Assembly: GCA_016185435.1 (NCBI GenBank) | Contig: JACPNN010000004.1 | Coordinates: 73,635-137,634 of the forward strand | Source of the DNA: Candidatus Aenigmatarchaeota archaeon | Lineage (GTDB): Archaea; Aenigmatarchaeota; Aenigmatarchaeia; QMZP01 | Direction: 5' to 3' | DNA length: 64,000 bases | Position numbers and translations under genes: made by a program | Shown: one piece after another, positions 3,435 to 51,569 of the stretch | Position numbering within the stretch: the stretch's first letter is position 1 | How the letters are laid out: each line of letters begins with the position of its first letter | The notes under the pieces: generated by a model | Seen by the model: only the letters and a program-made list of their open reading frames with translations | Databases searched by the model: none | What the model was told of the DNA's origin: nothing

Positions 3435-6400
3435 CTACCAGTTTGGCCACTCTATGGACGGCTTAAAGACCAGATATGCTATGCCCCCCTGAACCCCTCT
3501 GGCAACCCATCTGTATGCTCCTGAAACCGGGCCCAGAGAACTGCTGAGGGCCAATATGGTTATATCGAATGCAGTACCCGCTATCTGTTTTCTCATATCC
3601 TCACTGCTGTAGCAGAAATTGTATTTCTCTCCCTGTTTCTTGCTTTCCACTGAGACGACAACCGCATCGACCGTGCATGTCGGATCGGAAGGCAGTCTAA
3701 TGGGCTTGAAGCCGTACAGCTCTTTGATATAATCGATTCTTCCGTCCTCGTCTGAATCTGCCATCCTGAACATGTTGTTTTCGTGGATAGTTATGGTATC
3801 GATAAACGCATCGGGCTCTGTTGGGGGATTCTCATCGGTGAAGGAAAGCGTGTATGCTTTCAGCCTGTCTATCGGGTCGTTCACAGTGAATATCATCAGA
3901 TCTGCAAGTTCATCGGACGTTCCTGCTGTTATGGCATCCCTTTTCGCGTGGCTGAAGAATGTTATTGCATTCCTATTTATGGCTTTGTCCAGCTTTTCGG
4001 AACGGATGATGCAGTAGGATTCCCATAGGGAAAGATCTACATGATTGTCTTTCTTTTCCAGATAAGTGAATCTGAAGAAACGGTCAATGGGACTGTTCTT
4101 GTCCGAGCTTTCAGCGTGGCTCTCTTTGTCACCGCAGATGAAATAGGGTGAGTCAAGGGTAACGTAGTCTCCGCCTCTTTTCTGCGCTGTGGCGGGGTCA
4201 ATTGTATCTATCAGTTGGTCATTGTAGTATATCTCTGCCTTGTAGCAGCTGAACTTGTCTCCCTGGCCTTCTTCTATCACAAGGGGGTTGTTGGCGGATG
4301 TCTGTACACTCGCAACATCTGTCCATCTCCTTTCATACGGCTTGCAGTTGTCAAGCTTTTGTATTTTCTCAACCGATGTCCCTGTGCTTTGGGATGGATC
4401 ATTGCCAATCAGGCCAAGCGGGGGTAATTTTATCTTTTCCAGTTTTTGATTAATATAAACAAAAAGCCTTCTTTTATCCTCGTTCCTGCTTTCCAGAAGG
4501 TCCTTGAGAGAATCGGCGAGATATGTCTTCGCCAGGAAGCTGCCGCACATTGGCTGCTCCTTGATTTCCCCAAGGTCGGGCTGGTCGCACTGGGTCACGC
4601 CTGTGATTGCGTCATGCTCGTATCCATAACATCTGATTGGCCTTGACTCAACCTTGAGGTCTCCGTGACAGGGGGAGGCCAGATAGAACTTGGTTGGGAA
4701 ATTGCCCACCACGCCAGTTCCTGATGCATAGCCCTTGTCAAGCACGACGGGTTTCCCGATTTCAACGCCGTTCAATTGATAGGTTGTGTCAAAAATCTCT
4801 GCCGGATTCTCAAAGTCTTCGCCTTTTAAGTCTTCAAGCGAGCATTTTAGGGCCCTCATCAAAAGCATGCTTCCGCCTATTGGCTCGCTTTTGAGCAGTT
4901 CACATTCACTGAGCTTGCCGAAGTAGGTTGCAATGCCCGTGAATCCAAAATACAGCATTGTTTTCTTTGCCTGATCCCACTTTATCCCTAAAAATACCTT
5001 CTGGGCCACAGCCTTTTGGGCATCTTCCTTCATCAGGGGCATAAAGTCTATCACATCTGCCCCGATTTTTTCTGAAAGTGGCTTGTTCAGCAAGGACTTT
5101 GCCTTGTCATGGTTTAGCTGGAGGAATGTCCATGCGTCAGCTTCTGTCCCTTGGGCTTTAGCAAGGGCCTTGAACGCGGGGCTGGCATCATCTACCACGT
5201 TTCGAAGTTCGCCGAATGTTTTGTAAGTTTTGACCACCTCATCACTGACGCTGTGGTAATAAACCTTTCTGATAAGGCCTGATTTGAGGGCATATTCTTC
5301 CAGGCGGTTGAGCTTGGTGTTGCCTTTCCCTATCCCCACCGCAAGGAAGGCGTCGTCCTTCAGCTTGGAGATGGATTTTTTCACGGCTTCATAGCCCATG
5401 CCGATGGTCTTGCCGAACCCTGATCTTCTGCTTGCATCGACAACTGTCTTCACAGGCGCTATGGCCCTGCGGCCAATCGATTTGAACATGAAATCGGCAG
5501 GGATCATATACAGGACGACAACTGTCGCTGATTCCCACCACGAGGAGAAGCTTTTCCAGGATGCGTCCTCTCCTTCCGGGAACTGCTGGTAATAGACAAG
5601 GTAGCTGGGATTGCCAGCGCCATAGATGAATTCCTTGGGGCTCGCAAAGCCGCCGAAATCATCCGGAAGGCTGAAGCCCAGTATCTTGCATGACTTTACA
5701 ACTTCCTCTTCTTTGCAATCCTCTGCCTTGGCCAGCTTTGCATTTCCTTCCTCCACTGTGCCTTTAAGGAGCTTTTCAGCCTCTTTCCTGCATTTTTCCT
5801 GTGCTTTCTCATTTGTATCGGCAACAATAGGGAGCATTCTCAGCGGGCCGTATGGAGGGACGGAACATTTCTCGCATGTCACCTGCTTTTTCTGGCCTTC
5901 CCTGCAGTCGATTACTGTCCTGTCAATGGGCTTGCATTTGGGGCCGGGATTTGGACCAATGTTCTTTTCACAGACATCGCTGCTGTACTTGCTTCCACAC
6001 TCTTTCTCAGGAAGCCATCTGAAGCCTGTTTCAGGGCCTGTGAGGCAGCACACGGTGTCCTTGCAGATAATATCCTTCACTACTTCGGCCTTTTCTGAAC
6101 GCTCCTTTGATTTTGCCTCTTCAGCTGCTTCAGGGGTCACATAAAGCTGGTAGCATTCATCGCTGTCATAGATCTGGCCGCTCATGACGGTATTGGTAGC
6201 GCAGACAAGGGCTGTGTAGGACTCTATTGAGGTCTTGTCGTCCTGGGGGCTGGTGGCGCAGAAAATTCCCAAATTCTTGCACATGAACTCGAACAGCTTG
6301 GCAATGCCCTGGCCGCCAGAGGCTATGATGATCAGAAGGACAAGAGCCAGAACTATAAATCCTATTATTTCAGGCCCCATCTCCTCAGCTTCGCTGCCTT

Positions 6401-6461
6401 TTCTTGCTTTACCGAAAGACATGTTATCACTTGCCTGATGAAGACTTGGAGAAGAGATCAA
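3435..6461 (-). CDS. Large (about 1000 aa) membrane-anchored, Cys-rich extracellular protein of unknown function
   Basis: One N-terminal TM helix (IIGFIVLALVLLIIIASG), then a long hydrophilic domain with many Cys pairs. The true start is probably the Met at 6422 (MSFGKARKG...), which avoids overlap with the small upstream ORF. Confidence 0.6.
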   Translation of the reverse strand: MISSPSLHQASDNMSFGKARKGSEAEEMGPEIIGFIVLALVLLIIIASGGQGIAKLFEFMCKNLGIFCATSPQDDKTSIESYTALVCATNTVMSGQIYDSDECYQLYVTPEAAEEAKSKERSEKAEVVKDIICKDTVCCLTGPETGFRWLPEKECGSKYSSDVCEKNIGPNPGPKCKPIDRTVIDCREGQKKQVTCEKCSVPPYGPLRMLPIVADTNEKAQEKCRKEAEKLLKGTVEEGNAKLAKAEDCKEEEVVKSCKILGFSLPDDFGGFASPKEFIYGAGNPSYLVYYQQFPEGEDASWKSFSSWWESATVVVLYMIPADFMFKSIGRRAIAPVKTVVDASRRSGFGKTIGMGYEAVKKSISKLKDDAFLAVGIGKGNTKLNRLEEYALKSGLIRKVYYHSVSDEVVKTYKTFGELRNVVDDASPAFKALAKAQGTEADAWTFLQLNHDKAKSLLNKPLSEKIGADVIDFMPLMKEDAQKAVAQKVFLGIKWDQAKKTMLYFGFTGIATYFGKLSECELLKSEPIGGSMLLMRALKCSLEDLKGEDFENPAEIFDTTYQLNGVEIGKPVVLDKGYASGTGVVGNFPTKFYLASPCHGDLKVESRPIRCYGYEHDAITGVTQCDQPDLGEIKEQPMCGSFLAKTYLADSLKDLLESRNEDKRRLFVYINQKLEKIKLPPLGLIGNDPSQSTGTSVEKIQKLDNCKPYERRWTDVASVQTSANNPLVIEEGQGDKFSCYKAEIYYNDQLIDTIDPATAQKRGGDYVTLDSPYFICGDKESHAESSDKNSPIDRFFRFTYLEKKDNHVDLSLWESYCIIRSEKLDKAINRNAITFFSHAKRDAITAGTSDELADLMIFTVNDPIDRLKAYTLSFTDENPPTEPDAFIDTITIHENNMFRMADSDEDGRIDYIKELYGFKPIRLPSDPTCTVDAVVVSVESKKQGEKYNFCYSSEDMRKQIAGTAFDITILALSSSLGPVSGAYRWVARGVQGGIAYLVFKPSIEWPNW

Positions 6462-6579
6462 AAAGGACCTGGGTGATGCTTTTTCCCTTGAATGCGAAAT
6501 CCACGATAAAGGCTAAAACAACCAGAAGGACGATGATTGCAATAATGATTACGACGAGAGTCTTGATCGAGAACTCCAT
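6427..6579 (-). CDS. Small single-TM membrane protein (50 aa), hypothetical
   Basis: MEFSIKTLVVIIIAIIVLLVVLAFIVDFAFKGK... lies immediately upstream of the large surface protein on the same strand. Coding status is uncertain. Confidence 0.3.
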   Translation of the reverse strand: MEFSIKTLVVIIIAIIVLLVVLAFIVDFAFKGKSITQVLFDLFSKSSSGK

Positions 6580-7055
6580 AAATAATATTAAGTCCAAGGC
6601 ATAAATAAGATATATGAGCGACGATTTTATCATGGTTGTACTGCCGTGGTTCATAGCTGCGATAATAACAGTAGTTGCTATTATATATGTTGGGGACAAA
6701 TTAGGCGTGTTCAAATGAAAGGCGATTACGGCCCTGTGACAATGTGGATGATGCTGGCACTGCTCCTTGCATTTATAATAGGACTTGTCATTCTGGTCAT
6801 TAATAACAAGTTTTATGGGCCCATTCTGAAATGATATTTTTGGGCATATTTTATAAAAAGAAAATCCAATATCAAAGGCCATTTTGCATCAGGACGGCAA
6901 CAGGATAAGCCAGAAGAGCGTATCCTGCTTGTTCTTTCCTGGAAACGTTTTCAAGTATGCAGCTTTCCCAGATACTGAATAAATTATCCACGCTTTTCCA
7001 ATGGGGCACCAACAGGTGAGGGTAATTTATGTGAAGAAAGCCAAATATTCATGGA

Positions 7056-7691
7056 ATGAAAATGAAGGCAGCTATTGTAGGCGACTGGGTTCTTATTCTT
7101 TTCGCAATAATTGGAATTTTTTCTGCAATAGCGCTTGTCACATATCTTGCAGCAAGAACTCTGGCACCGCTGTGCTGGCAGAACACTATTGAGCCTCTGG
7201 CTTCTTCCCTTACGGGAGAAAAGGGTGCCATAGGAGATCTGAGGCTTCTGGGGGGAAGAAGCGAATTCGATTTCAGGCTGCCCATGGAATATGATTGCGT
7301 GAAAAGCGTGCAGTTCAAGGGATACAAGGCATGCATGGGAATATGCGACAGCTTTGGCGGGGAGCAGGACAAAAAGATATGCAAGGAGAGATGTACAAAA
7401 TGCAAGGACAGGGATGGGTGTGTAGTTGCTGTGCCAGTGAAAAAGAGCTTTGGAAATGTTGTCTGGTCTTTTGTCTCCGGCGGTGATGCGGGTAAGACAG
7501 CAAAGCAGATCCACATAAACATCGATACATTCCCGTCTGACTATTCGTTTGAGGGTGATGATGAACTTCAGCCGCTGAAAGGAAAAGACAAGGTATACTG
7601 TCTTCACTTTTCCAAGTCAGGGGACAGTTATAATATCGTCAAGAAGGTTGTGGATGTCACAGCTTCCTGTGGAGGGTTTACGGCGGAGTGA
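7056..7691 (+). CDS. Membrane-anchored Cys-rich protein; first gene of the pilin-like operon
   Basis: 211 aa. N-terminal hydrophobic segment KAAIVGDWVLILFAIIGIFSAIALV, then a Cys-rich hydrophilic domain. The overlapping antisense ORF 6984..7607 was rejected on composition. Confidence 0.55.
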   Translation: MKMKAAIVGDWVLILFAIIGIFSAIALVTYLAARTLAPLCWQNTIEPLASSLTGEKGAIGDLRLLGGRSEFDFRLPMEYDCVKSVQFKGYKACMGICDSFGGEQDKKICKERCTKCKDRDGCVVAVPVKKSFGNVVWSFVSGGDAGKTAKQIHINIDTFPSDYSFEGDDELQPLKGKDKVYCLHFSKSGDSYNIVKKVVDVTASCGGFTAE

Positions 7692-7695
7692 TATC

Positions 7696-8160
7696 ATGAA
7701 AGGGGATGTAAGCGAGGAGCAGTCATATTTCATAGGGGCCGTAGTCATAGGTCTCATGTCGCTTGTTGTCATAGTGAACGTGTTCGTGCTCCCTTTCATG
7801 AGCGACAAATTCAAAGCCACAAACCTTGCCGCAGACATCTCATTCTACATGGGAGCCTTTTCCATCCTCGAGTCCGATGAAAAGGGAGAAGTGGAGATTG
7901 TGCTTGACAGAAAATATGACATAGAATTCAAAAGGCTGGGCCTCGCTGACATAGAAAGGCTGAAGCATATCAGTAAGACATTTGCAGGGGCTGGATTATA
8001 TGTCACTGCATATGCTTACAAAAAGGATGGCAAGGACAGGGAAATGGGACAGAGCATGTATATCATAGTCGACGATGCGGATGAAACAAAATTCACGGCA
8101 TCAGAATACATCAAGATCATAAAGAAGCCGGGGGAAAAAACGAGGTTTGAGTATCTATGA
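7696..8160 (+). CDS. N-terminally anchored small protein (pilin-like), hypothetical
   Basis: Start moved to ATG 7696 (MKGDVSEEQSYFIGAVVIGLMSLVVIVNVFV). A single hydrophobic helix follows a short charged N-terminus. The stop overlaps the next start (ATGA). Confidence 0.5.
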   Translation: MKGDVSEEQSYFIGAVVIGLMSLVVIVNVFVLPFMSDKFKATNLAADISFYMGAFSILESDEKGEVEIVLDRKYDIEFKRLGLADIERLKHISKTFAGAGLYVTAYAYKKDGKDREMGQSMYIIVDDADETKFTASEYIKIIKKPGEKTRFEYL

Positions 8161-8546
8161 TGAAGGCAAGCACACAGGGGATTGAATTCACAGTGGCTGT
8201 GGTTATTTATATATTCTTTGTCATTGGCCTTATCGTAATGATGCTGGTGTACTTGCAGACAATAAATGTCGATACATCGAATGTTGAGCCTGCCCTCAGG
8301 AAGGTGGATGTCGCCCATGCGGCAAAGAACTGCCTCACTGAAAGGGGGGAGATAAAGAAAAACCTGCTGACAGAAGAAAGGGTTCGAAAATGCGGCCTAG
8401 GCAGCTATTACATAAGGGTCACGAACCTTGAAACAAAGGAGATGTGGCAGCATGGATATAACAAAGAAGGTCTTGAGCATACAGTGTTCGCTGCCATTGA
8501 AAAGGACAATGGAGCTGATCCTGCGGAGATCTATGTCAAAGCTTAA
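8157..8546 (+). CDS. Putative class III signal peptide (pilin-like) protein
   Basis: 129 aa. N-terminus MMKASTQG|IEFTVAVVIYIFFVIGLIVMMLV resembles prepilin/class III signal peptides (G then hydrophobic with an early Glu). Confidence 0.5.
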   Translation: MMKASTQGIEFTVAVVIYIFFVIGLIVMMLVYLQTINVDTSNVEPALRKVDVAHAAKNCLTERGEIKKNLLTEERVRKCGLGSYYIRVTNLETKEMWQHGYNKEGLEHTVFAAIEKDNGADPAEIYVKA

Positions 8547-8940
8547 AGGCATAGGGCCTGAACTGATAGTGCTGATAATTATAGCAGCCTTTGGCTTCGG
8601 TTTTGCCTATCTTATCACGCATATCGACTGGATTTCTTTCGTAATAGGGATAAATAATTATCTGAAGCTGTCGTTTGATCTGGAGGACAGGGGGACGAAG
8701 ACGCTTGCATTTCTCCTGACGAGGGAGGGAGGTAGGACAGCGGCTGAAGAGATTGGCGGTTTGAGGGCTGGAAGGGAGCCTGCCGGATTTGTGGAGAAGG
8801 CTGCTGAAGCGCTGAGGATAAAGGTTGAGATAGGGGATGACAAAGGCAGGGTGATAAAGAAGTATGGGGTTGTGTCGGATGCTGTCGACACTACTATAGC
8901 TTTGCCGGGCCTGAAGAAGGGGAGGGTGTCAGTGGGATGA
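8533..8940 (+). CDS. Putative class III signal peptide (pilin-like) protein
   Basis: Start chosen at MSKLKG|IGPELIVLIIIAAFGFGFAY (KG followed by a hydrophobic stretch). A longer ORF from 8428 exists. Overlaps the previous gene by 14 nt. Confidence 0.45.
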   Translation: MSKLKGIGPELIVLIIIAAFGFGFAYLITHIDWISFVIGINNYLKLSFDLEDRGTKTLAFLLTREGGRTAAEEIGGLRAGREPAGFVEKAAEALRIKVEIGDDKGRVIKKYGVVSDAVDTTIALPGLKKGRVSVG

Positions 8941-10013
8941 AAAGGAAAGGCCTGGCTATCACAACATTGATTATTTTCGTAATCATGATATTTTTTGTCT
9001 TCATATACCAGCTGATCACGCCTCTCGGGCAGGTAAACAAACTGCTGGTTAAAGAGAAGGTGAGCCAGAAAAACTTCTTCACAGTAAGCAACTCGCTTGA
9101 CGCCGCCAAATACGGGTTCCTTGAGCCTGCGCTGAAATACTCATATTATCAGGCCTGTTATGATAACCTGAAGAAAGGCGGCTGGAAGAGGGTGGAGGAA
9201 AGCAGGAAGACCAAATATCAGGACATGGAGTTCATGCCGCTTGCCGGGAAGGAGGATTTTCTGGACAGTCTGGAGGGAGAGGCCCTGAAGAATCTTAATA
9301 TTTACACGGAAAATGGCGATGGGGCGTATGTTTTCCTCACCCAGTTCGGGGTGAGGCTGCCGCTTTATGATGATGTTAAAATAAGGCAGGAGACAGGAAA
9401 GGCTGTCATAGGAGCCGAGGGGGGGAAGCTGAAGATTGAGGAGAAGGAGCCCGATGAGACAATAAGGCTGGAGAAGGTTTCGAGGCTCGAGGCTGAAGCA
9501 GATGACAACTGCCTGCAGATGCATTCTGCTGCCCGGGAAAAGGAGGAAAAGCTGAAGGGCATGCTTGAAGAGGCCATGAAGAAAGAGATGATCAGGTGGC
9601 CTGTCCTTGGAGCCAAGGATGCTGAACACCAGACTGCCGATGATGTGTTTGCCAAGGCGGCAGGGGAGGCCGGGATAGAGGTTACCGGCATTGAGAATGG
9701 AAGACTGAAGATGGAAGAGGGCCTGAAGGGCATAAGAATTCCGGCAGGAGAAGGCACGGAAGGGCTTAATACAAATTACATTTTATTAAGAAATCTGATC
9801 AAGGCGGATATAAAAGCGAAGGAGTGCGAGGACAGGACCTGCTATAATTTCATTTATCAGGCAAGCGTGCCTGTGGGAGTGAAAATTGCCAATAAAAACG
9901 ACAAGGACAGGCTTCCTGTATTCAATGGCAAGGATGTGGCCTTTGAAGCTCTGGAGATCAGCTTTGCTTATACGCATGAGTTCGGGTATGAGAGGGGGCC
10001 TTTGATTCCTTAG
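8937..10013 (+). CDS. Large pilin-like protein with class III signal peptide-like N-terminus and coiled-coil-rich body
   Basis: 358 aa. MKRKG|LAITTLIIFVIMIFFVFIYQLI. Its ATG overlaps the upstream stop (ATGA), which suggests translational coupling. Confidence 0.5.
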   Translation: MKRKGLAITTLIIFVIMIFFVFIYQLITPLGQVNKLLVKEKVSQKNFFTVSNSLDAAKYGFLEPALKYSYYQACYDNLKKGGWKRVEESRKTKYQDMEFMPLAGKEDFLDSLEGEALKNLNIYTENGDGAYVFLTQFGVRLPLYDDVKIRQETGKAVIGAEGGKLKIEEKEPDETIRLEKVSRLEAEADDNCLQMHSAAREKEEKLKGMLEEAMKKEMIRWPVLGAKDAEHQTADDVFAKAAGEAGIEVTGIENGRLKMEEGLKGIRIPAGEGTEGLNTNYILLRNLIKADIKAKECEDRTCYNFIYQASVPVGVKIANKNDKDRLPVFNGKDVAFEALEISFAYTHEFGYERGPLIP

Positions 10014-10067: not shown

Positions 10068-10421
10068 TTATATCATCTCAAGATACTTCTTCTGCCTTAT
10101 GGCTACTGACTTCAGGCTGAGCAGGGAGATTTTTTTCCTTAAAGCCGCATCCTGGGTGCAGATCACATACCCTTTTTTGGCCATGCTGAGGAGGGCTGTG
10201 TCGACAGGCTGCCCTGATTCTATCAGGAAGCACTCTGAGCCGGCAAAATCAGCCGCCATCCTTGAGAATCTCCTTTGCCTGCTTCTTATCTTTTCAAGCT
10301 CGGCAAAGACAGAGGAAAGGGCAAACAGTTCCGGCCGGCCGAACTTGGAAAGCTCGCTTACGAGGCCTATCTTGAATGCGAAAATGTCAACAAGGAAGTT
10401 GGTGTCGAGGAGGAATTTCAT
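10068..10421 (-). CDS. vapC: PIN-domain nuclease (VapC-like toxin)
   Basis: 117 aa. N-terminal MKFLLDTNFLVD... acidic PIN signature. Confidence 0.7.
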   Translation of the reverse strand: MKFLLDTNFLVDIFAFKIGLVSELSKFGRPELFALSSVFAELEKIRSRQRRFSRMAADFAGSECFLIESGQPVDTALLSMAKKGYVICTQDAALRKKISLLSLKSVAIRQKKYLEMI

Positions 10422-10464
10422 ACATAGATTCTTTCCTCTTGATATATAAACCGATTCTGGAAAA

Positions 10465-10605
10465 CTATTTCTTCCTGGCCTTCCACTCCCTTGCGAACTC
10501 CCTCATCTTGGTGTCAATTTCGGTCTCGCTGCTGAAACTCTGGCCATATCTCTTCTTGAACTCGCCAAGAAACTGCTCTATTTCCTCGTCTCTGTCAGCA
10601 GGCAT
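10465..10605 (-). CDS. Small putative antitoxin partner of the downstream PIN gene
   Basis: Roughly 46-aa charged helical protein (MPADRDEEIEQFLGEFKKRYGQSF...) 43 nt upstream of the PIN gene. The call rests on position only. Confidence 0.3.
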   Translation of the reverse strand: MPADRDEEIEQFLGEFKKRYGQSFSSETEIDTKMREFAREWKARKK

Positions 10606-10693
10606 TGGAGGTCTATTAAAATATATTGCTGCGGTTGCTTTTAAAAGGAAGAGGGGGCCTTGCGGCAAACCCGTTATTTCTACAGCAAGAAAA

Positions 10694-11131
10694 CTAAATA
10701 ACCTCGATTGGCTCCTTCCTCCTCAAATCAGTTTTATCGAAATGCCCGTCAAAGCTTATTATGGTCTCTGCACCTGTTTTTTTGGCGGTAAGATACTGCA
10801 GGCTGTCATCGAAATCCAGCCCGATTTTCTGGGCGACAATGCTTATTGCCAGCTCTTCTCCTATAGTAGTGGTGTGGATTGTAAGGCCTATCGAATTATT
10901 AATATTCTTCAGAAAGGTTTCCAGAATAGCCAAGTTTTCCGAGAGTATTCCTTCGACTGCATGGACTGTGAATGAAGACACTATGCATTGCAGTTCACCT
11001 GAGGAAACCTTCTGCAAAAATTTTTCGCAATCTTCTGCTTTCTTTTGGTTCAGAAGGATCTCCAGAAAAATATTGGTGTCTATCAGATGCACGTCAGTCC
11101 ACCTTTCTCCATGCTTTATGCTGCAATTCAA
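10694..11131 (-). CDS. vapC: PIN-domain nuclease (VapC-like toxin)
   Basis: HLIDTNIFLEIL...D..Q PIN motifs. The true start is probably the GTG near 11092, abutting the upstream RHH gene. Confidence 0.75.
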   Translation of the reverse strand: MNCSIKHGERWTDVHLIDTNIFLEILLNQKKAEDCEKFLQKVSSGELQCIVSSFTVHAVEGILSENLAILETFLKNINNSIGLTIHTTTIGEELAISIVAQKIGLDFDDSLQYLTAKKTGAETIISFDGHFDKTDLRRKEPIEVI

Positions 11132-11321
11132 CCGAGTTTTCTCCTGATTTTATGGAGCCTCTCAAAGCTGACCAGTCTATTTTGTCTGAGGATATCCATT
11201 TTTTTATCAGGTTTTCAGTTGCGGCCTTCAGGCTGCCTCTTTTGTAGCCATACGCTTTCATAGCCTTTCTCCTGAACCTCGCCAAAACCTTTTCATCTGT
11301 GTCGATCTTTAAAGTACCCAT
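11094..11321 (-). CDS. vapB: Ribbon-helix-helix (CopG/VapB-like) antitoxin
   Basis: 75 aa. TLKIDTDEKVLARFRRKAM... beta-strand-helix-helix pattern. Sits immediately upstream of the PIN gene and overlaps it. Confidence 0.5.
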   Translation of the reverse strand: MGTLKIDTDEKVLARFRRKAMKAYGYKRGSLKAATENLIKKWISSDKIDWSALRGSIKSGENSVELQHKAWRKVD

Positions 11322-12983: not shown

Positions 12984-14372
12984 GTGATGGATTTGCCCGA
13001 AACAGAATCGTCTATACTGCTCAGAATGCTGGATAAGTATAAGCTTTTCGACATTGATATAGAGCTTGCCCAGTTCTTCCGTATCAGCAACAGGGGCGAC
13101 ATCGAGGGGCCATACAAAGGACTGCCTGAGCCTTATAGGATGGGCGGCACAGGTCGCAACATTCCCCTGGAGCATTTCAGGATAACAACAGTACGCTTCA
13201 GGAGTCGTGAAGGTGTCCCGTATATCTATTTCCGTACGCCCCGCATAGAGGCAGGCAGTGTCAAGATAGGCAAAATCAATGTGCTGGACAGGCCGCTGAA
13301 GATCAATGATCTTGTTTGGATCACACCTCAGGATGGCAGGGTAGGCCTGGTAATCGGCACAATAATCAGGATAATAGACACGGAGAGAACGAAAAAACCG
13401 CCCAAAGAGGATGAAAATGAGGAGCTTGAGAAGATCAAAGAGGAGCTTGAAGAAAACCGCAGGCTGTATGCCCTGCCTTCAGGAGAAAAGCCCGCCCTGA
13501 AGCCCTACGCCCCCGGCCCCCTGCCTGCAAATATCCCTAGGAGAGGAAGGAAGGAGAGGGGATTGTGGGAGGACAACAGACCCATACCTATGGGGCCGCT
13601 AAGGCCGCCGGCATTGCCGCCGGGAAGGGAAGGGAGACCTGAACCAAGGCCTGTAATTCTGGAGGAAGGGATTCGGGAGCCGACAATAGTGAACATTTAT
13701 GCCCTTCCGCTCGACGAAAGAGGCAGGCCAGGCCTTCATGGAGTGCAGCAGCTTCGTGCACGCATCCTGACATCAGAACCGAGAAGGTTGGAGCTTATAG
13801 ACCAGCTTCTTCCTTTAAGAAATCTTGAGCTTGATAACCCGCCTGCCCGCATACTGATCGAGGCCGAATACGATCATCCGCAGGCCGGAAGGCTTGTGGC
13901 GCACAGGGAGTTTGATCTGCATCCGGGGGTAAATAATCTGATCCTCCAGTTCAGAATTCCTTTTGGCGCTGGCGGGATCGGAGGGCCGGGAAGGCCAGAA
14001 GGGCCAGTTGGAGGAGGGCCTGCGAGGCCCGAAGGCGTCGGGGGCGGTGAAGGGGAAGGATGGTGGTTTGAAGGCCATGTTGTTGACCAGAACAATAATC
14101 CGATACCCAATGCAAGGATTACAATAGCTGGCACTGCCCATTCTGTTGCTACAGGAGCAAATGGCAGATACAGAATTCCCGCTGCAGGAGGGCTTCCGCA
14201 GGGAAACTATACTCTATTTTGCCAAGTCCCGCCAGAACAAACCCGTGGTGCTGCACAGACACATGCAGCAGATGTGAATATTGCCGAAGGCGGGCAGGCT
14301 GAAATAAGGATATTTCCAGTTGAAGTAGAGCACCGCCAGAATAGAGGCGGAGAACCAAGGAGGGAAGGATAG
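12984..14372 (+). CDS. Pro-rich protein with C-terminal carboxypeptidase-regulatory-like (CarboxypepD_reg) domain
   Basis: 462 aa with no signal peptide. Pro/Gly-rich linker, then GEGEGWWFEGHVVDQNNNPIPNARITIAGTAHSVATGANGRYRIP. Ends at TAG 14370-14372, in frame with the next ORF. Confidence 0.55.
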   Translation: MMDLPETESSILLRMLDKYKLFDIDIELAQFFRISNRGDIEGPYKGLPEPYRMGGTGRNIPLEHFRITTVRFRSREGVPYIYFRTPRIEAGSVKIGKINVLDRPLKINDLVWITPQDGRVGLVIGTIIRIIDTERTKKPPKEDENEELEKIKEELEENRRLYALPSGEKPALKPYAPGPLPANIPRRGRKERGLWEDNRPIPMGPLRPPALPPGREGRPEPRPVILEEGIREPTIVNIYALPLDERGRPGLHGVQQLRARILTSEPRRLELIDQLLPLRNLELDNPPARILIEAEYDHPQAGRLVAHREFDLHPGVNNLILQFRIPFGAGGIGGPGRPEGPVGGGPARPEGVGGGEGEGWWFEGHVVDQNNNPIPNARITIAGTAHSVATGANGRYRIPAAGGLPQGNYTLFCQVPPEQTRGAAQTHAADVNIAEGGQAEIRIFPVEVEHRQNRGGEPRREG

Positions 14373-14375
14373 ACT

Positions 14376-17300
14376 ATGCCTGCAATAATTATCAACTTCA
14401 TTATAAACATAAATGTTCCGCCGCCCCCGCCTCCTCCTCCTGGAGGGGGTGAAGGATGGATTGAAGGTCTTGTAAGAGATGAAGGCGGCAGAGCCATTGA
14501 TAATGCAAATGTTATTAATCATACTACTGGAGAACACACCCAGACCAATCATTTAGGCTACTACAGGCTTCCGCAGGATCCGCGAGAAGGTCTGACTCCC
14601 GGCCATCATCTTGTCGCATGCGGAGCAACAGGCTTTGAAGATCAGGAAAGGGAAATTGAGGTGAGACCTGGACGGGCTGCAAACGGCAATTTCACTCTTC
14701 ACAGAAGAACTGGCCGTACTCCGGCTGGCCAAGGTGTTGTCTATGGTCAAGTCTGGATAAAGAATGCGCAGGGAAAGGATGAGCCTTTCATACCCCAAAC
14801 TGAAAGAGTGCCTGACTGGCAGCAAAGGAACAGAATATATGCATATCCCTTAACTCATACCGTCCTTGGCTGGTTTGGGAGGATTCTCCCTGATACCCGT
14901 CTCAATTGGCCAGAAGCTATATCTGAAGGTCATATTGATGAGCATGGAAGATATTCTTTAAGCCTGTTTCCTGGAACCTACCAGCTCGTGTGCAATATCA
15001 CAGATCCACGCCGGGTACAATGGCCCGTAGCTGACTCAAGGAGAGATGCAGCCGGCAATATAATACAGCCACTGCCTCACCACGCTGATCCGTCTTCAGT
15101 GTATGAACCCAAGACAGCCATGGCAACAGTTCGGGCGTATCAAAGAACCAAGCATGACTTCCATTTCTACCCGCAAGGAGGTTCACGGATTGCCAGAGGC
15201 GCAAATACAGCAAGAAACTGGATCGAGCAGAGGTGGGGGGCCGGGATTACAGGGAACATTCACATCATCGCGCTTCTTGCGATAGGCGTCCTCATCTCCA
15301 ACTACTTCCATAACACCAACTTCCTTCTCGGCTTCTGGTCGCTGGTCGCGTACTTCCTGATACCTGAGCCCATACAGGGCAGGCTACAGCAGGAGCTTGA
15401 AGAAGGCCACATGCAGCTGCAGTTTAGGTGGCGGGACTTGGTAATGAGAGGAGAGAACAGAGAGCAGTTCAACAACGCGTGGAGATGGCTGCTTGGCAAC
15501 AACAATTCCCAGTTCACCGCGCTGAGGAGCTTTGCCAAGGTAATGGCCATCTGGTTCTTCAGCCAGGGACTACTGCAGAGCACCTTCGCCTTTTCGAACA
15601 TAATGCTGCTCATAGTGGTCTTTGCAGGATACTATTCCTTTGCCATAGAGTATGACACAAGGAGATCGGGCCAGGTGATAGAGTCATTCTTCAGGTTCGC
15701 CTTCCTAGGCGTGTACCTGATCCCGTGGGTTGTAGTGGCGAGGGTGTTCGATTCTAATGTCCTTGGGCTAATAGCATTTGCGTTTTTGGCCGTACCTCCC
15801 TTTTCGAGAAGGGACCAGCAGCATGAATCCTCAATAGGGTCAGGACTGGAACCGGCGATGAAGGTTGCCTTCCTTATCTGCATGATCATAGCGCTTATGT
15901 ACAGCGGGGCGATGGCCACATTCTTCCCCGAATCCCAGATGTTCCAGACGCAGACAGGTTGGGGGCTTAAGGGAGGCTTGGCAGACACGTTCTTCTTCTT
16001 CTGGTTCCTGACAACGCTGGTCGGGTTCTTTTCACCGCCACAGGAGAGGCCCGCAGCAGGATTCATCATGCTTTTCGCAGCGACTGTCATATATGCGCTT
16101 GGGCCCGGAACCCAGGAGGTGGGGCAGGGGCTGCTCGGGCCTTATTTCCCTGCATTTTACAAAGGCATGATAGGAACAATCAAGCCCGTGACCCAAGCGT
16201 TCTCTGGCTTCGGGAGCGCATTCGGTCCTGCCCTCTGTCTGCTCACCAATCCTGTGGCATGTGCACAGAACATAACTGACGGCAGATGGAGTCAAGATTC
16301 AACTACTGGGATTGCAGGGGCATACGGCGTCGAGCTGGAGGACTTCAGGATGGATGATCAGATATTCACAGAGCAGCCTTTTGCCATCACGCTGAAGCTG
16401 AACAATCTGGGCTCGTTCGATGCGAGGCATGTCGATGTCAGCTTTGCGGCCGGGGAGGATGCGGCAACTATAGAGGAGAGGGAGAGCATGTGGATAAGGC
16501 CGTTCAGATCAAGGCAGGATACAGACAACAAAAGGAAGCGGATGAACCTAGCCGAACTTGGTTTCGGTGACAGGCCTGATGACCCTCAGGGGAAGGAGGG
16601 CCTTGACTGCGTTGAAGACAGCACAGGCGTACCGGTTCTTTGCAGGAGCACCGACCGCATTGATGTCATGGAGAAGAAGGACATACAGCCCATAAGGTTC
16701 GAGAGCAATGATGAAGGGATAAAATGCAGGGCCGTCACCAAATATGAGCTGTATGAAAAGTATCTGCCCTTTGCGGCCAAGGTCTCATATGATTATGGCA
16801 TCTCATCGAGCCTTGATGTAGAGTTCCTCAGCGATGCCGAATGGCGAAGAAAGTCGCAGGCAGAGGAGCTTACTTTCCAACAGAAGATACCCTCCACCCT
16901 TTCGAATTCCCCTGTCATGCTGAATATAGACACTACACCGCAGCCGATAAGGGAGGATGTCTCATTCCCAATCAGGATGCAGCTGAAGACCGGGCCCAGA
17001 GGAGGGACGATAAACAGGACATACATGATAAATGCGGAAATACCGACGGAGCTGTGGAAGGCGAAGAGGTACTGCACACCGTCTCCCTCCAGCGAGACAG
17101 AGATTGCCCAGAAGGGCGTGACACTGGTCAGATGGGAGGAGAGCAGGATACTGCCTTCAAGGACAATCGCATGCCAGTTCAACGGATACAAGTTCCCGAA
17201 GGGCGAAAAGGAGAAAATAGGCGTGCAGCCGACAAAGAGTTTCCTGATAAAGACCAATGCAAGCTACAGGTTCGAGAAGGCGGAGCAGACCATAGGCAAG

Positions 17301-17750
17301 CTGGAATGGGGCGGGGTGGCGTGCTGCTATCCGGCAGGGCAGTACAAAGGGCAGGACGGAGACAAATTCTGCCAGTCCCTTGGATATCCTGCATGCGATG
17401 CAACGACTCATCAATGCAAGGCGGAGGCGCAGACGTGGGGGCCTGCCGATCATTGCAAGAACCAGATAGCGTCAAACCCGAAGGAGAAGTGCAACCTTGG
17501 TGCTGGAGGATGCTCATCGGATGCGGAGTGCTGCTCTGACCCTGCTGATTGCCAGGGCTCTGGAGGGCTGTTTGATGTCGATAGCGATGGAAATCCTGAT
17601 TCTCTGGAATGCAGGAGAAAAATAGCCAATGGCGTCTGCTGCCCTGCAAAGACAAGCGACAATGACTGCGCTGCAGCCCACCAGATGTTCACGGAGAACA
17701 AGAGCCCGGCAGAGGTAAGTGACTTCCTGAGAAAGAATACGGGTCCCTGA
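14376..17750 (+). CDS. Giant (1124 aa) polytopic membrane protein with N-terminal poly-Pro + CarboxypepD_reg-like domain and Cys-rich C-terminal domain
   Basis: PPPPPPPPGGGEGWIEGLVRDEGGRAIDNANVINHTTGEHTQTNHLGYYRLP, then at least 8 predicted TM helices (about aa 290-620), a large hydrophilic domain, and a C-terminus with more than 20 Cys. Confidence 0.6.
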   Translation: MPAIIINFIININVPPPPPPPPGGGEGWIEGLVRDEGGRAIDNANVINHTTGEHTQTNHLGYYRLPQDPREGLTPGHHLVACGATGFEDQEREIEVRPGRAANGNFTLHRRTGRTPAGQGVVYGQVWIKNAQGKDEPFIPQTERVPDWQQRNRIYAYPLTHTVLGWFGRILPDTRLNWPEAISEGHIDEHGRYSLSLFPGTYQLVCNITDPRRVQWPVADSRRDAAGNIIQPLPHHADPSSVYEPKTAMATVRAYQRTKHDFHFYPQGGSRIARGANTARNWIEQRWGAGITGNIHIIALLAIGVLISNYFHNTNFLLGFWSLVAYFLIPEPIQGRLQQELEEGHMQLQFRWRDLVMRGENREQFNNAWRWLLGNNNSQFTALRSFAKVMAIWFFSQGLLQSTFAFSNIMLLIVVFAGYYSFAIEYDTRRSGQVIESFFRFAFLGVYLIPWVVVARVFDSNVLGLIAFAFLAVPPFSRRDQQHESSIGSGLEPAMKVAFLICMIIALMYSGAMATFFPESQMFQTQTGWGLKGGLADTFFFFWFLTTLVGFFSPPQERPAAGFIMLFAATVIYALGPGTQEVGQGLLGPYFPAFYKGMIGTIKPVTQAFSGFGSAFGPALCLLTNPVACAQNITDGRWSQDSTTGIAGAYGVELEDFRMDDQIFTEQPFAITLKLNNLGSFDARHVDVSFAAGEDAATIEERESMWIRPFRSRQDTDNKRKRMNLAELGFGDRPDDPQGKEGLDCVEDSTGVPVLCRSTDRIDVMEKKDIQPIRFESNDEGIKCRAVTKYELYEKYLPFAAKVSYDYGISSSLDVEFLSDAEWRRKSQAEELTFQQKIPSTLSNSPVMLNIDTTPQPIREDVSFPIRMQLKTGPRGGTINRTYMINAEIPTELWKAKRYCTPSPSSETEIAQKGVTLVRWEESRILPSRTIACQFNGYKFPKGEKEKIGVQPTKSFLIKTNASYRFEKAEQTIGKLEWGGVACCYPAGQYKGQDGDKFCQSLGYPACDATTHQCKAEAQTWGPADHCKNQIASNPKEKCNLGAGGCSSDAECCSDPADCQGSGGLFDVDSDGNPDSLECRRKIANGVCCPAKTSDNDCAAAHQMFTENKSPAEVSDFLRKNTGP

Positions 17751-18336: not shown

Positions 18337-19259
18337 TGTGCTATCCCGAATTAGTTAGAGCCTTCCTGTCACTATAAAATACCTCGGCAGGGTATTTATA
18401 GCCTATAGCGCCGCATGGCCTCCTATAGTTCCAGTATCTAACGAACTTACCGTGGTCGCCTTTGGTGACCCATATCTCCGCCTCATAGCAGCCATGGAAA
18501 TTCTCAATCTTGCCGCAGGTAGTCGGTCTCTTTACAGTGCTGTGGATAACCTGCACTCCCTGCTGTTCGCAGAACAGCTCGAAATCTGTCAGCTGTCCGC
18601 TCAGGTTGTTCCTGAACTGGCTGCCGTTGTCTGTCAGTATCTGCTCCGGAGTCCCGTATCTCCTGAAGGCTTGCGCTACAAGCCTTATTGCATTCTCCAT
18701 CGTGGCTTCATCGAACTTCTTTGACGCCGCGACAAACCTCGAATGGTCGTCATAAAACGTCAGCATGGGATTGCCGATCAGCACATCCTTCCAGTCTCCC
18801 TGCCACAGGGACATGCTGTGCTGCCTTTCCCATCGAGTCCTGCCCCATGTCCTTCTTTCCCTGGTTATGGGGCTGTTGAGGTTCTTTTCCTTGATGAGCT
18901 GGTATATGCGGTTATGCGGTATGTGCACCCCATGGTGCACATCGAGATGTCCTTCTATCTTGGTCGGCCCCCAGCGATAGGCTTTCCTCCATATCTGGAT
19001 CCTCCTTGAATCGTTGGCGCCTATGGTGTATCTGGCCTTCGGTCCAGGCTTCCTCTTGTTGACAAGGGAGGCGTACTCGCCTTTGTTTATCCGCAACTTC
19101 CAGAGAAAGTAAGTGCTTTCCGGTATATTCAGCTCTCTCCGTATGTCTATGTCGCTCCAGCCTTCTCTTAGCTTGAGCAGCATCATTGCTATCTTGTTGT
19201 CCCTGTCCATCGAATCACCTCATCCTGTTATAGGTGACTCCAACTAATAGGGATAGCTC
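18337..19259. mobile_element. Insertion sequence (about 923 bp) with a single DDE/rve transposase gene, imperfect terminal IRs and a 16-bp flanking direct repeat
   Basis: Left end TGTGCTATCCCGAATTAGTTAGAG (18337..18360). The right end is its inverted complement GCTATCCCTATTAGTTGGAG (19239..19258). The 16-mer ATATTTAAATGCTTTT occurs directly on both flanks (18321..18336 and 19260..19275). Confidence 0.75.
18341..19210 (-). CDS. DDE transposase, integrase-core (rve) type
   Basis: 289 aa. N-terminal HTH, then an rve-like catalytic core (WQGDW...D...LTDNGSQF...E). Confidence 0.8.
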   Translation of the reverse strand: MDRDNKIAMMLLKLREGWSDIDIRRELNIPESTYFLWKLRINKGEYASLVNKRKPGPKARYTIGANDSRRIQIWRKAYRWGPTKIEGHLDVHHGVHIPHNRIYQLIKEKNLNSPITRERRTWGRTRWERQHSMSLWQGDWKDVLIGNPMLTFYDDHSRFVAASKKFDEATMENAIRLVAQAFRRYGTPEQILTDNGSQFRNNLSGQLTDFELFCEQQGVQVIHSTVKRPTTCGKIENFHGCYEAEIWVTKGDHGKFVRYWNYRRPCGAIGYKYPAEVFYSDRKALTNSG

Positions 19260-31123: not shown

Positions 31124-32599
31124 TCACGCCTCATCCTGAACAAATTTCTTCCCTTCCTTCAGCACCATTTCAGCCCTCGCAAGCTCGTGGCCTATGTATG
31201 CGGCATGGTCGAGCATGGAGATGAGATTTTCATTGATTATTCTCCTGTAAAGAACTTGGGCCTTGTTTCCCCTGAAGACATAGCCTGTCGGCAGGCCTTC
31301 CCTTGTATAATGCTCGACTATTATCTCCCCATTTTCGACCTTAACGATGAAATAGCCGTTCTCGTCCTCTGAGAAGGCCGCTGGTTTGTCCGCATGGTAT
31401 TTGTCTATTATGGCCTTGGCCTCCTTCCAGTTGTTCTCATAGATGTGGGCAGATGTGGATACTGTTATCAGCTTCCCTGCCTCCATCTCCAGCTCTTTGG
31501 CCATCTGCCTCTGCAGCCTCCTCAGGGCGAAGGCATTGAGGGGCCATGCCCCGAACATGTCATTGGACCTTATTATTGCCGTCTCATAGAGCTTGTTGCC
31601 TTTGATGCTCCACACTATCTGGGTTATGCACGGGGGGTCTTTTGACAGGCTGTCTGCCTCGACATTCCATGTGACTGCAACAGCCCGCCTCGTGTGGGGA
31701 ACTTCTTTCAGGCGCTTCAGGGCATTCTCCACCTGATTCACAATGCCGGAGGGCGTGGCATATTTCAGCAGCCTGTTGCCGTATGTGTACTCCACACCCT
31801 CAGGCTTCTCCTCTGAAAAGAATGTAGCGAAGTAGCTTTCGAGGTCCTTTTCCGTTATGTTCAGCCAAGGCGCTATTTTCTCATCATCGCCTTCTATTAC
31901 AGTGACGAGATTTATGACCTCATTCTGCCTTGCCTGGTACTCAGTCTGCTTCTCCTCCCCGAATTTCATCACCACATCAAGGGCCTTCAGCCATACATCG
32001 GCAATGCTCCTGCCCCTCACTTTAAAAGCTACTTCCCCTGATTTCATCTCCGCAGGCCTTGTCTCGAGCTCTGTTATGAAGACAGCCTCCATGAATGGCT
32101 GCTCATTCTTCAATTTCTCGACAGCATTTGGAAGCTCCTCTTCCTTCCCTCTCAAATCAATCACCTTCACATGGCTGCGGAAACTTTCGATAAGGCAGGG
32201 ATCCACATTCGAATCGATATAGCCTGACGAGCCGATTATTTTCCTGTCTGAATCACAGCCGCTGCTGACGAAATTCATCAGGGCCTGGCCGCTCTTCATG
32301 AGATCTGCGCCGCAGAGGGCTATGTATCTTATGGTGGGCTTCGCAAGGATGTTCTTGAGCATGGGGTTTATCCCCTGGACCGTGTAAAGGTTGCCGCAGA
32401 CTGCGTATTTGTTCTCAGGCACCTTACTGTGGATTATTTCCTTCCTTGTCCAGAGGGTGCATATCCCCACTGAGCTGTCAGGATTGCCCAGCTTCAGCTC
32501 GTCCCTGTAGAATATCGGCCATTCCATGTCATCAGGCCAGATTTGGATGCAGGCCATAAAAATGTTGGGGATTGAAAAAGGGAACGACCCCATTCTCAA
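31124..32599 (-). CDS. thyA: Thymidylate synthase (ThyA-like core) with large N- and C-terminal extensions
   Basis: Core motif PHTRRAVAVTWNVEADSL...PCITQIVWSI parallels the ThyA RR..W..PC active-site region. About 250 extra N-terminal aa and a C-terminal tail (DUF4346-like). Confidence 0.65.
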   Translation of the reverse strand: MRMGSFPFSIPNIFMACIQIWPDDMEWPIFYRDELKLGNPDSSVGICTLWTRKEIIHSKVPENKYAVCGNLYTVQGINPMLKNILAKPTIRYIALCGADLMKSGQALMNFVSSGCDSDRKIIGSSGYIDSNVDPCLIESFRSHVKVIDLRGKEEELPNAVEKLKNEQPFMEAVFITELETRPAEMKSGEVAFKVRGRSIADVWLKALDVVMKFGEEKQTEYQARQNEVINLVTVIEGDDEKIAPWLNITEKDLESYFATFFSEEKPEGVEYTYGNRLLKYATPSGIVNQVENALKRLKEVPHTRRAVAVTWNVEADSLSKDPPCITQIVWSIKGNKLYETAIIRSNDMFGAWPLNAFALRRLQRQMAKELEMEAGKLITVSTSAHIYENNWKEAKAIIDKYHADKPAAFSEDENGYFIVKVENGEIIVEHYTREGLPTGYVFRGNKAQVLYRRIINENLISMLDHAAYIGHELARAEMVLKEGKKFVQDEA

Positions 32600-48642: not shown

Positions 48643-49266
48643 ATGGAACAAAAGATGGCAATCGTATTGGCAGTTGGGATAGTGCTGGGGCTTGCTGCTG
48701 GAACACTTATTTCTTCGTTCCAGGTAAACAGCCTCAATGCCAAGCTCACAGAGGTCTCAGGCAGGGCAACGGCTGCTGAAAGCCTCAAGGGCCAGATTTC
48801 AGACCTCAAGCTGCAATTGGAGAAGCTGAATGTGAATGAGCTCTACGGCCTTGTGAAAGCCGGAGACAAAGCCAAAGCCTATGGGATCGGCGACCTCAAC
48901 AAGATGCCTCCAATAATTGCTAATGACTATGTTGGCCAGACGCCTGTGGTGGTGTCATGGTGCCCCCTTTGCAACACCCTGACCGCATATGAAAGGGCTC
49001 TTCCAGGAGACATTATCGCCAATGGCAAGACCATATCCAAAGGCACAGTCCTGACTTTCAGGGAGGCAGGGGCGAGGAAGATACCAGGCACTGACATAGA
49101 CAACCTGCATTTCAAGGATGATGAGACAGGCAGCTTATGGGCTCAGGGCCCTGGAATGGCTGTGGAAGGGCCGGCCAAAGGGCAAGAGCTAAGGACGCTT
49201 CCAATCCAGCTGTTCAACAAGGGCGTAATAGCAAAAATGGGTGCGCCTGTCTGGGGTTCCAGCTAA
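48643..49266 (+). CDS. Membrane-anchored DUF3179-like protein
   Basis: N-terminal TM helix. VVVSWCPLCNTLTAYERAL motif is paralogous to the C-terminal domain of the 50003 gene product. Confidence 0.5.
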   Translation: MEQKMAIVLAVGIVLGLAAGTLISSFQVNSLNAKLTEVSGRATAAESLKGQISDLKLQLEKLNVNELYGLVKAGDKAKAYGIGDLNKMPPIIANDYVGQTPVVVSWCPLCNTLTAYERALPGDIIANGKTISKGTVLTFREAGARKIPGTDIDNLHFKDDETGSLWAQGPGMAVEGPAKGQELRTLPIQLFNKGVIAKMGAPVWGSS

Positions 49267-49286
49267 ACCAATTGGGGGGGGGATAT

Positions 49287-51526: not shown

Positions 51527-51569
51527 CATATCGAACTAACTGTCTCTGTAGTTGTTGCCAATTCTCTCC

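Follow-up and report, generated by a model that had tools for sequence, protein, structure and literature searches.

A fast-diverging, cysteine-rich surface protein and its conserved nine-gene module in Aenigmarchaeota: a candidate contact apparatus

What does an archaeon do with an exported protein of nearly 1000 residues that has a single membrane anchor, is dense in cysteines and matches no known domain, and does such a protein work alone? The question is raised by a gene at positions 3435..6422 (minus strand) of a 64,000-nucleotide stretch of DNA from a Candidatus Aenigmatarchaeota archaeon (contig JACPNN010000004.1, positions 73,635 to 137,634; hereafter “the window”), whose genes include fibrillarin, DUF63 and archaeal ATPases. 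As judged by comparison of related loci, its product (the large protein) is co-inherited with the other eight genes of a module, and it diverges far faster than its surroundings. The reading we favor, to which we give a probability of roughly 0.55, is that the large protein serves as scaffold or adhesin in a lineage-specific, hypervariable apparatus for cell contact, where it is co-assembled with its partners.

The extent of the gene requires some care. The open reading frame (ORF) delivered by a mechanical search (3435..6461, minus strand) exists as the initial annotation described it, opening at TTG 6461 and encoding 1008 residues, but that TTG overlaps the mini ORF upstream, and the biologically likely start is ATG 6420-6422, giving a protein of 995 residues that ends at the stop codon 3435-3437. 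This ATG sits 4 nt past the TGA of the mini ORF (GGCAAGTGATAACATG), behind a GTGAT Shine-Dalgarno-like box, and it is also the start used at NCBI for a 100% identical protein, HYX24_01465 (hypothetical protein, Candidatus Aenigmarchaeota archaeon). Residue numbers here follow the 995-residue product, which retains all of the cysteine motifs already remarked upon in the longer frame (CKDTVCC, CEKC, and CHGD..C..C..C).

Relatives of the large protein are easily missed. A word-indexed homology search, with either the single sequence or an 80-sequence alignment, returned the query itself as the sole match, whereas an exhaustive HMMER search against 1.84 billion representatives recovered 179 clusters with E<=1e-3, 99 of them with E<=1e-10, and members typically 700-1500 residues long; the best relative aligns over the full length at E 6e-195 and is 39% identical. 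An orphan reading was dropped on the strength of those 179 clusters, with the methodological warning that the indexed search alone would have supplied the wrong label. Named records belong to Candidatus Aenigmarchaeota/Aenigmatarchaeota, to one “Micrarchaeota” or to “uncultured archaeon,” and all are hypothetical proteins; the initial annotation, which spoke of “DPANN and other archaea,” therefore cast its net too wide. The 80-sequence alignment defines the family features and column counts given below. Gene context was drawn from 39 non-redundant loci with a family member (L-numbers in what follows), assembled from exact-protein look-ups, a GTDB genome scan and a metagenome scan, with partner families detected by iterated hidden Markov models; loci L001-L003 are 100% identical to the window and add no diversity.

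Besides the large protein, the module comprises a mini protein of 50 residues, two proteins of 34-43 residues, and five proteins with prepilin-like N-termini, in which the pair [KR][GA] precedes a transmembrane (TM) helix. In the window, the mini gene (6427..6579, minus strand) lies just upstream of the large gene. On the plus strand follow two genes for single-TM proteins of 34 residues (6614..6718) and 39 residues (6715..6834, beginning MKGDYGPVTMWMMLALLL), with counterparts in L004, L005, L008, L013, and L016, and then the five-gene prepilin-like operon (7056..10013), made up of p211 (7056..7691), p168 (7654..8160), p129 (8157..8546), p135 (8533..8940), and p358 (8937..10013). Searched as family profiles, p358 and p129 gave no relatives in the PDB.

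That the large gene is transcribed divergently from a pilin-like operon next to it was noticed at the outset, and both points hold for the window, yet the operon has turned out to be more than a neighbor: its five families and the two 34-43-residue genes are co-conserved with the large gene, all five partner families being present in 13 loci and in seven of the nine loci that have at least 5 kb of sequence on both sides. Partner genes are divergent from the large gene in the window, L004, L005, L008, L023, L024, L028, and L047; the module is colinear in L016, and the partners lie downstream in L011, L012, and L013. Since the arrangement varies across loci in this way, selection is likely to act on the linkage itself, which would make the linkage functional rather than merely inherited. 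A separate observation concerns L012 (9957..12746; the same as L017), where a second, divergent large-family paralogue lies directly 3' of the first and is followed by a mini-family gene and then the partners.

The mini protein (MEFSIKTLVV...SKSSSGK; full sequence MEFSIKTLVVIIIAIIVLLVVLAFIVDFAFKGKSITQVLFDLFSKSSSGK) has one TM helix, and its gene is probably the first of a leaderless two-gene transcript. Orthologues with the opening pattern M[ED]F[ST]I[KR]xLxV occur in L047 (50 residues, 58% identity), L004, L013, L016, L028, L029, and L031, among others. In 10 of 21 assessable loci a mini-family gene and a large-family gene are immediate neighbors on one strand, and in 14 they lie no more than 3.3 kb apart; these counts are lower bounds, 50-residue TM proteins being hard to detect. 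The mini gene precedes the large one in the window, L004, L005, L013, and L047, and comes immediately after it in L010, L011, L016, L028, L029, and L031. With a gap of 4 nt in the window, a 4-nt overlap of coordinates in L013, and the recurrent same-strand adjacency, the two-gene unit suggested by the initial annotation is well borne out. The [KR][GA] motif of the partners is found in only 1 of 17 mini-family members and is missing from the mini protein of the window. In L007 the place of the mini protein is taken by another gene directly upstream of the large one (5726..6565), encoding an N-terminally anchored protein of 279 residues whose core is transglutaminase-like (cysteine protease fold).

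Between the divergent genes of the window lie only 34 bp (6580..6613), which hold two AT-rich sequences resembling TATA boxes, AATAATATT and ATAAATAAGAT, each placed some 25-30 nt ahead of the start codon on the opposite side. L047 and L004 keep both boxes of the window, and L013 keeps them in part. The arrangement can be read as back-to-back archaeal promoters with leaderless first genes.

The pace of change at this locus is best appreciated in three genomes that share it with identical synteny (the window, L004/L006, and L047). Among these, the flanking genes (DHH, PQQ propeller, fibrillarin, VapB, and PIN) are 89-94% identical at the amino acid level, while the large protein falls to 37-43% and p211 to 36-39%; p168 (48-52%), p129 (48-53%), the mini protein (58%), p135 (58-60%), and p358 (67-77%) lie in between. 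At the DNA level the flanks are 89% identical and most of the large gene is unalignable; at about 40% amino acid identity, substitutions at synonymous positions have reached saturation. Divergence thus peaks at the large gene and p211, which flank the presumed shared promoter region, and the whole of 3435..10013 is a divergence hot spot. Such a pattern is expected of a surface determinant under diversifying selection or allele exchange, and in Nanoarchaeota, too, surface proteins are reported to have diversified (PMC6142677). Directly beyond p358 in the same three genomes lie PIN/VapB toxin-antitoxin genes (window 10068..11321, L004 236..1236, L047 6807..7807), which, unlike the module, are 91-94% identical between L004 and L047.

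Where the large protein resides is indicated by hydrophobicity and by its cysteines. On the Hessa scale, residues 18-36, the most hydrophobic 19-residue window of the N-terminal helix, are the sole TM segment of the query (-3.5 kcal/mol), and the same N-terminal helix has a family median of -3.3 kcal/mol, with 99% of members at or below 1. Scores of +5 to +9 kcal/mol were obtained for the remaining hydrophobic stretches, which are segment A (296-321), segment B (about 495-515), and two C-terminal helices; the C-terminal hairpin, at +5 to +10 kcal/mol, is not a TM segment in its own right. Cysteines number 28, an even figure, and make up 2.8% of residues, as against 1.3% in 24 other window proteins taken together (binomial P = 1.7e-4), all within residues 48-245 and 507-937 and none in 246-506.

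Across the 80 aligned sequences, the cysteine columns 308 (in segment A) and 979 (in C-terminal helix 2) are both occupied by cysteine in 48 members and both free of it in 32, never one alone; columns 507 and 527 behave likewise (both in 16, neither in 64, a single one in none), and columns 48 and 55 covary strongly, nearly all-or-none. For the query, the predicted disulfides from this analysis are 48-55 and 507-527. Pairing of this kind is a disulfide signature and places the paired segments together in an oxidizing, extracytoplasmic compartment. Taken with the single Hessa-negative helix, it indicates that the whole chain past the N-terminal helix is extracellular and cross-braced by conserved disulfides, in agreement with the initial picture of one N-terminal anchor followed by an extracellular cysteine-rich chain.

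Two other regions of the window are of interest for their cysteines or thiol chemistry. A cluster at 48643..54098 encodes a DUF3179 fragment, DsbD_TM, an AhpC/thioredoxin-DUF3179 fusion, and an 842-residue DUF255-thioredoxin-DsbD_TM fusion; it is consistent with extracytoplasmic thiol-disulfide chemistry and a cysteine-rich secreted proteome. At 42275..43879 lies a gene for a 534-residue Lamin Tail Domain protein that is 4.1% cysteine, the highest value among the window proteins checked.

An AlphaFold2 model built from the 80-sequence alignment gives the layout of the chain (predicted local distance difference test, pLDDT, 73.3; predicted template modeling score, pTM, 0.76), whereas a single-sequence run reached a pLDDT of only 34. 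The N-terminal signal-anchor (6321..6422, minus strand, as are all segments of the gene) consists of MSFGKARKG, an acidic spacer, and a TM helix that ends in GG and spans residues 16-34 in the model; with its prepilin-like (class III-like) look it conforms to the family pattern of a short basic N-terminus and a TM helix ending in GG, followed by a variable cysteine-rich region. Ectodomain 1 (residues 39-293; 5544..6308) is alpha/beta, holds 16 cysteines, varies in length across the family, and closes with the family's most conserved motif, C.V.NF.LP..F.G...A.E.I.GFGDP.[FY]LVY.Q.FP.GED..W. An all-helical, cysteine-free, Lys/Arg-rich region (294-512; 4887..5543) then begins with segment A, and model confidence is low at residues 308-368.

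The beta-rich ectodomain 2 (residues 518-927; 3642..4871) contains the family motif PFYLASPC.ADL.V….C..Y.YD…G…C..P…CG, of which the invariant SPC...C...C...C part occupies residues 583-627 (4542-4676). Further along lies a DxDxDG-type, Ca-binding-like loop, ADSDEDGRIDY (887-897; 3732-3764), with a below-threshold Pfam EF-hand match (E 0.05). Family members carry one or two [FI]xDxDxDGxxD loops, most of them two, and D863 is nearly invariant. The C-terminal module (3438..3626) consists of NFCY, a Gly/Ala/Ser-rich amphipathic helical hairpin with modeled helices at 943-962 and 970-985 (hairpin 943-985), and a terminal ..EWPN(W); its family counterpart is N[FY]CY, about 45 Gly/Ala-rich residues, and an invariant WP. 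The query carries all four family motifs, namely the prepilin-like TM, the GFGDP motif, the SPC motif, and the N[FY]CY-hairpin-WP ending. Nine columns are invariant in the alignment (P272, W289, P584, C585, C598, C612, C626, C916, and C937), and six of the nine are cysteines.

Nothing in the libraries searched matches this chain significantly. Pfam and NCBIfam gave zero matches for the large protein, the mini protein, and the adjacent plus-strand operon proteins, and no Pfam domain was found in 45 diverse family members; searches of PDB sequences with the large protein gave nothing significant, and no internal repeats and no paralogy with other window proteins were found. Foldseek comparison of the model with 350,542 PDB chains yielded nothing significant (best E 0.26), and comparison with viral predicted structures gave no significant match. 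No pilin or archaellin family model or fold matched the large protein, and comparison with S-layer proteins gave neither a Pfam domain nor a significant structural match to solved examples. A viral origin was considered and dropped, a PHROGs search having returned nothing meaningful and IMG/VR viral contigs holding zero relatives. As modeled, and within the libraries searched, the large protein has neither a known fold nor a catalytic site that could be detected. The absence of a recognizable domain had been part of the initial annotation, and it stands for the query and for the 45 relatives, none of which shows an enzymatic domain; the gene is intact in all relatives, and the AlphaFold check that had been proposed produced a whole-chain model resembling no solved or viral structure searched.

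Two further lines of evidence bear on the large protein and its partners, and the first is the form of their N-termini. The query begins MSFGKARKG-SEAEEMGPE-IIGFIVLALVLLIIIA, with KG present and an acidic spacer of 7-10 residues (depending on the start chosen) before the hydrophobic stretch. In the large family, [KR][GA] precedes the TM in 55 of 80 members, the commonest +1 residue is Q (16 members), and 50 of the 55 have an acidic residue within +10. Partner proteins carry [KR][GA] within 12 residues before the hydrophobic stretch in 51 of 65 cases, compared with 38 of 84 controls (P = 5e-5); the controls are other N-terminally hydrophobic ORFs, a contaminated set that still includes the large family. 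Partner N-termini such as that of p358 (MKRKG|LAITTLIIF) are canonical; another example with the motif reads RKG|QLVLFFILVG.

The second line comes from what partners carry in sister lineages. A homology search with p358 led to a 623-residue relative in L016 with a C-terminal SLT lytic transglycosylase domain (E 2e-27). The genes of L016 run in one direction in the order large (717 residues), mini (65 residues), 34 residues, 43 residues, p211-like, and then the remaining partners: a 307-residue protein with SLT, a p129-like protein, a 346-residue protein with Peptidase_M23, and the p358-like protein with SLT. SLT domains are found on p168-position proteins of L008, L023, and L024, M23 domains on p135-position proteins of L008, L011, L023, and L024, and PG_binding_1 inside the p358-like proteins of L023 and L024. 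These longer, armed orthologues of p168, p135, and p358 fall at L016 4101..11872, L008 2301..5669, L011 10577..11512, L023 1343..5377, and L024 1912..6207, of which L008, L011, and L016 are archaeal loci. Only short, unarmed partners occur in the window, L004, L005, L012, L013, L028, L029, and L047. Across armed and unarmed modules alike, the large protein is the constant, non-catalytic member.

To our knowledge archaea have no murein, and so the SLT, M23, and PG-binding domains are most simply taken to be aimed outward, at bacterial walls. Bacterial walls have been proposed as targets of DPANN extracellular SLT proteins (PMC8204110, PMC9723730), and antibacterial activity has been demonstrated for haloarchaeal peptidoglycan hydrolases (PMC12352652). 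Because its partners in sister lineages bear murein-hydrolase and murein-binding domains, the large protein may itself have a role in cell contact.

These observations can be joined into a tentative mechanism. The N-terminus of the large protein would act as a class III (prepilin-type) signal, and by way of their N-terminal helices the protein and the five partners would come together in a short surface structure resembling a pilus or a bindosome. FlaI/FlaJ-type machinery from elsewhere in the genome could drive this assembly; FlaI, FlaJ, and FlaG are reported in most Aenigmarchaeota metagenome-assembled genomes (PMC8407114). Within the structure the large protein would provide the scaffold or the target-recognition (adhesin) part, and the partners would be its functional arms, murein-binding, lytic-transglycosylase, or M23-endopeptidase in sister lineages and short and unarmed in the window. 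The mini protein, presumably made from the same message just ahead of the large protein, may be a membrane partner or an assembly factor. Rapid allele turnover would then reflect selection at a cell-to-cell or virus-to-cell interface.

Several observations weigh against a co-assembled apparatus of this kind. The signal of the large protein is non-canonical for class III, having a polar/acidic spacer of about 5-8 residues and lacking [KR][GA] altogether in 25 of 80 members. Neither the 64-kb window nor the annotated flanks of L001, L004, L013, and L016 yielded an assembly ATPase, a platform protein, or a prepilin peptidase. A conserved hydrophobic C-terminal hairpin is unexpected in a subunit that leaves the membrane to become part of a fiber. 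The module of the window has no hydrolase domain, so that its link to murein runs through partner orthology alone, and in L007 and L030, with at least 5 kb on both sides, no partner genes are nearby.

Several of these points also support a rival, the one put forward in the initial annotation, in which the large protein would be a stand-alone, membrane-anchored coat protein or adhesin, S-layer-like or S-layer-associated, held by an ordinary uncleaved signal-anchor, its link to the operon reflecting co-regulation of envelope genes and no physical assembly. In its favor are the single-pass, large, disulfide-rich, and fast-evolving ectodomain, the non-canonical class III motif, the lack of any linked pilus machinery, and the loci L007 and L030, which do without the operon within 5-7 kb. 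Against this, five partner families and mini genes are co-conserved with it in 13 loci despite reordered genes and strands, the divergence gradient is common to the whole module, and anchoring is N-terminal. This is the alternative that survives best, and we nonetheless regard it as unlikely.

The C-terminal hairpin invites a different idea. Segment A and the hairpin, tied by the 308-979 disulfide in most members, might serve as a latent element for membrane insertion, opening or bridging the membrane of a partner cell once the hydrolase arms had breached its wall. These moderately hydrophobic segments are conserved in the family and yet are not autonomous TM helices; perfect cysteine covariation couples the one to the other; the hairpin is rich in small-xxx-small motifs and has the invariant WP end; partners in five loci carry murein-degrading or -binding domains; and DPANN cells are known to take material from partner cells (PMC11291902). 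The case is purely inferential all the same. No fold similarity was seen to fusexins, class I-III fusion proteins, or pore-forming toxins with solved structures, and the hydrophobic helices may simply be the buried core of a large globular protein. We consider a membrane-attacking component quite unlikely.

Less likely still is that the protein is an enzyme of new fold, a peptidase, a glycosidase or the like, working on polymers of the envelope. Its large conserved core, in which Pro and Trp residues are invariant and Asp residues conserved, would suit such a role, and the family profile gave, as its best hit among PDB sequences, a weak and non-significant match (E 0.27) to the helical activator region of M9 collagenases. 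The blank Pfam, NCBIfam, and PDB results speak against it, as do the six cysteines among nine invariant columns and the placing of catalysis in this module on separate partner proteins. No HExxH motif was seen on reading the translation, and with the collagenase match non-significant the peptidase reading was dropped.

Least credible is a polytopic protein with its cysteine-free, Lys/Arg-rich region 294-512 in the cytoplasm between two more TM helices, a topology to which the lack of cysteines in 246-506 of the query, the net positive charge of residues 301-400 across the family, and the moderately hydrophobic segments bordering the region lend some color, and which was dropped as largely refuted, the bordering segments having family median insertion energies of +5.7 and +9.1 kcal/mol and the perfect pairing of column 308, in the first of them, with 979, and of 507 with 527, calling for an oxidizing, extracytoplasmic location.

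Three other features of the window deserve brief mention. An rve-family integrase with helix-turn-helix domains (18341..19210), probably an insertion sequence element, lies about 8 kb from the module. Two adjacent genes at 12984..17750 encode proteins of 462 and 1124 residues, each with a CarboxypepD_reg domain and otherwise unannotated; the larger has 25 cysteines, and the pair are possibly further surface proteins. At 31124..32599 an unusual 491-residue fusion joins MtrA-like, thymidylate-synthase, and pterin-binding DUF4346 domains.

The locus described here offers a concrete, testable candidate for the means by which DPANN archaea recognize other cells, attach to them, and take resources from them: a conserved nine-gene surface module with a confidently modeled large-subunit fold that matches nothing solved. 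Allele identity of about 40% beside flanks that are about 90% identical is as expected for a host-range or virus-receptor determinant, and the wall-binding and wall-cutting domains on sister-lineage partners point to bacteria as targets. A bolder proposal, which we hold to be improbable but worth stating, is that the module is an undescribed archaeal machine for contact-dependent exploitation, prepilin-anchored and equipped with interchangeable wall-binding and wall-cutting arms, whose large subunit would recognize the target and insert disulfide-locked hydrophobic helices into its membrane. If that were true, Aenigmarchaeota would include episymbionts or predators of bacteria, and hypervariable alleles of the large gene would set host range.

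No description of the large-protein family or of the nine-gene module was found in the searchable literature. In Gram-positive conjugation, PrgK carries LytM, SLT, and CHAP domains behind an N-terminal TM helix, and so it too has membrane-anchored M23 and SLT domains tied to a multi-protein, envelope-spanning apparatus; here, by contrast, no VirB4/VirD4 ATPase or relaxase is nearby, and the archaeal host has no murein of its own.

The bacterial minor-pilin plus PilY1 operon (fimU-pilVWXY1E), compared here together with the GspHIJK tip complex of the type II secretion system, encodes a priming or tip complex that mediates adhesion. It shares with the present module a set of four or five small pilin-like proteins, one non-catalytic protein of about 1000 residues, and a location apart from the assembly ATPase; the DxDxDG-type Ca-binding loop of PilY1 may have a counterpart in the Ca-binding-like loop of the large protein. 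PilY1 has a Sec signal and a C-terminal beta-propeller, whereas the large protein has a prepilin-like anchor; it gave no Pfam or structural match to the PilY1/PilC propeller and shows no sequence or fold similarity to PilY1. In the Sulfolobus bindosome, pilin-like BasABC proteins act with sugar-binding proteins that bear class III signals, so that functional proteins outside any filament bear such signals and join small pilin-like proteins in an assembly at the surface. This is the best analogy for M23, SLT, and PG-binding subunits with prepilin-like N-termini, although an ATPase and a membrane protein (BasEF) are encoded in the bindosome locus itself, the cargo consists of solute-binding proteins, and no homology is seen.

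Archaeal type IV pilus loci often hold large, cysteine-rich proteins with class III signals that are predicted adhesins (PMC4858521). The “adhesin or minor pilin” proteins of those loci (Makarova, Koonin and Albers 2016, PMC4858521) are, like the large protein, large and secreted, with a prepilin-like N-terminal segment and many conserved cysteines; they too are encoded with several small pilin-like proteins and evolve extremely fast. The differences are that the locus here has no secretion ATPase, TadC/FlaJ, or prepilin peptidase, that neither DUF2341 nor any other domain was detected, that the signal contains a polar spacer, and that partners elsewhere carry murein hydrolases; to the extent that the comparison could be made, neither the family nor the fold is related to the arCOGs of that survey. 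The hydrolase arms recall the large extracellular murein-lytic transglycosylases of Woesearchaeota and Pacearchaeota (Castelle 2021, PMC8204110; Vigneron 2022, PMC9723730), extracellular hydrolases presumably directed against bacterial walls and for which attachment to, or predation on, bacteria has been proposed. Those proteins and their haloarchaeal counterparts (PMC12352652) are single giant SLT proteins or secreted modular hydrolases, whereas here the domains sit on separate prepilin-like subunits of a nine-gene module whose large subunit has no hydrolase domain and which, in the window, is unarmed.

With no shared domain or fold, unlinked machinery, and a non-canonical signal, membership in the archaeal type IV pilus adhesin, PilY1, or bindosome families is not supported. 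What the locus does resemble is the broader class of prepilin-anchored archaeal surface assemblies, to which it would add a structurally novel large subunit and, in sister lineages, murein-hydrolase arms.

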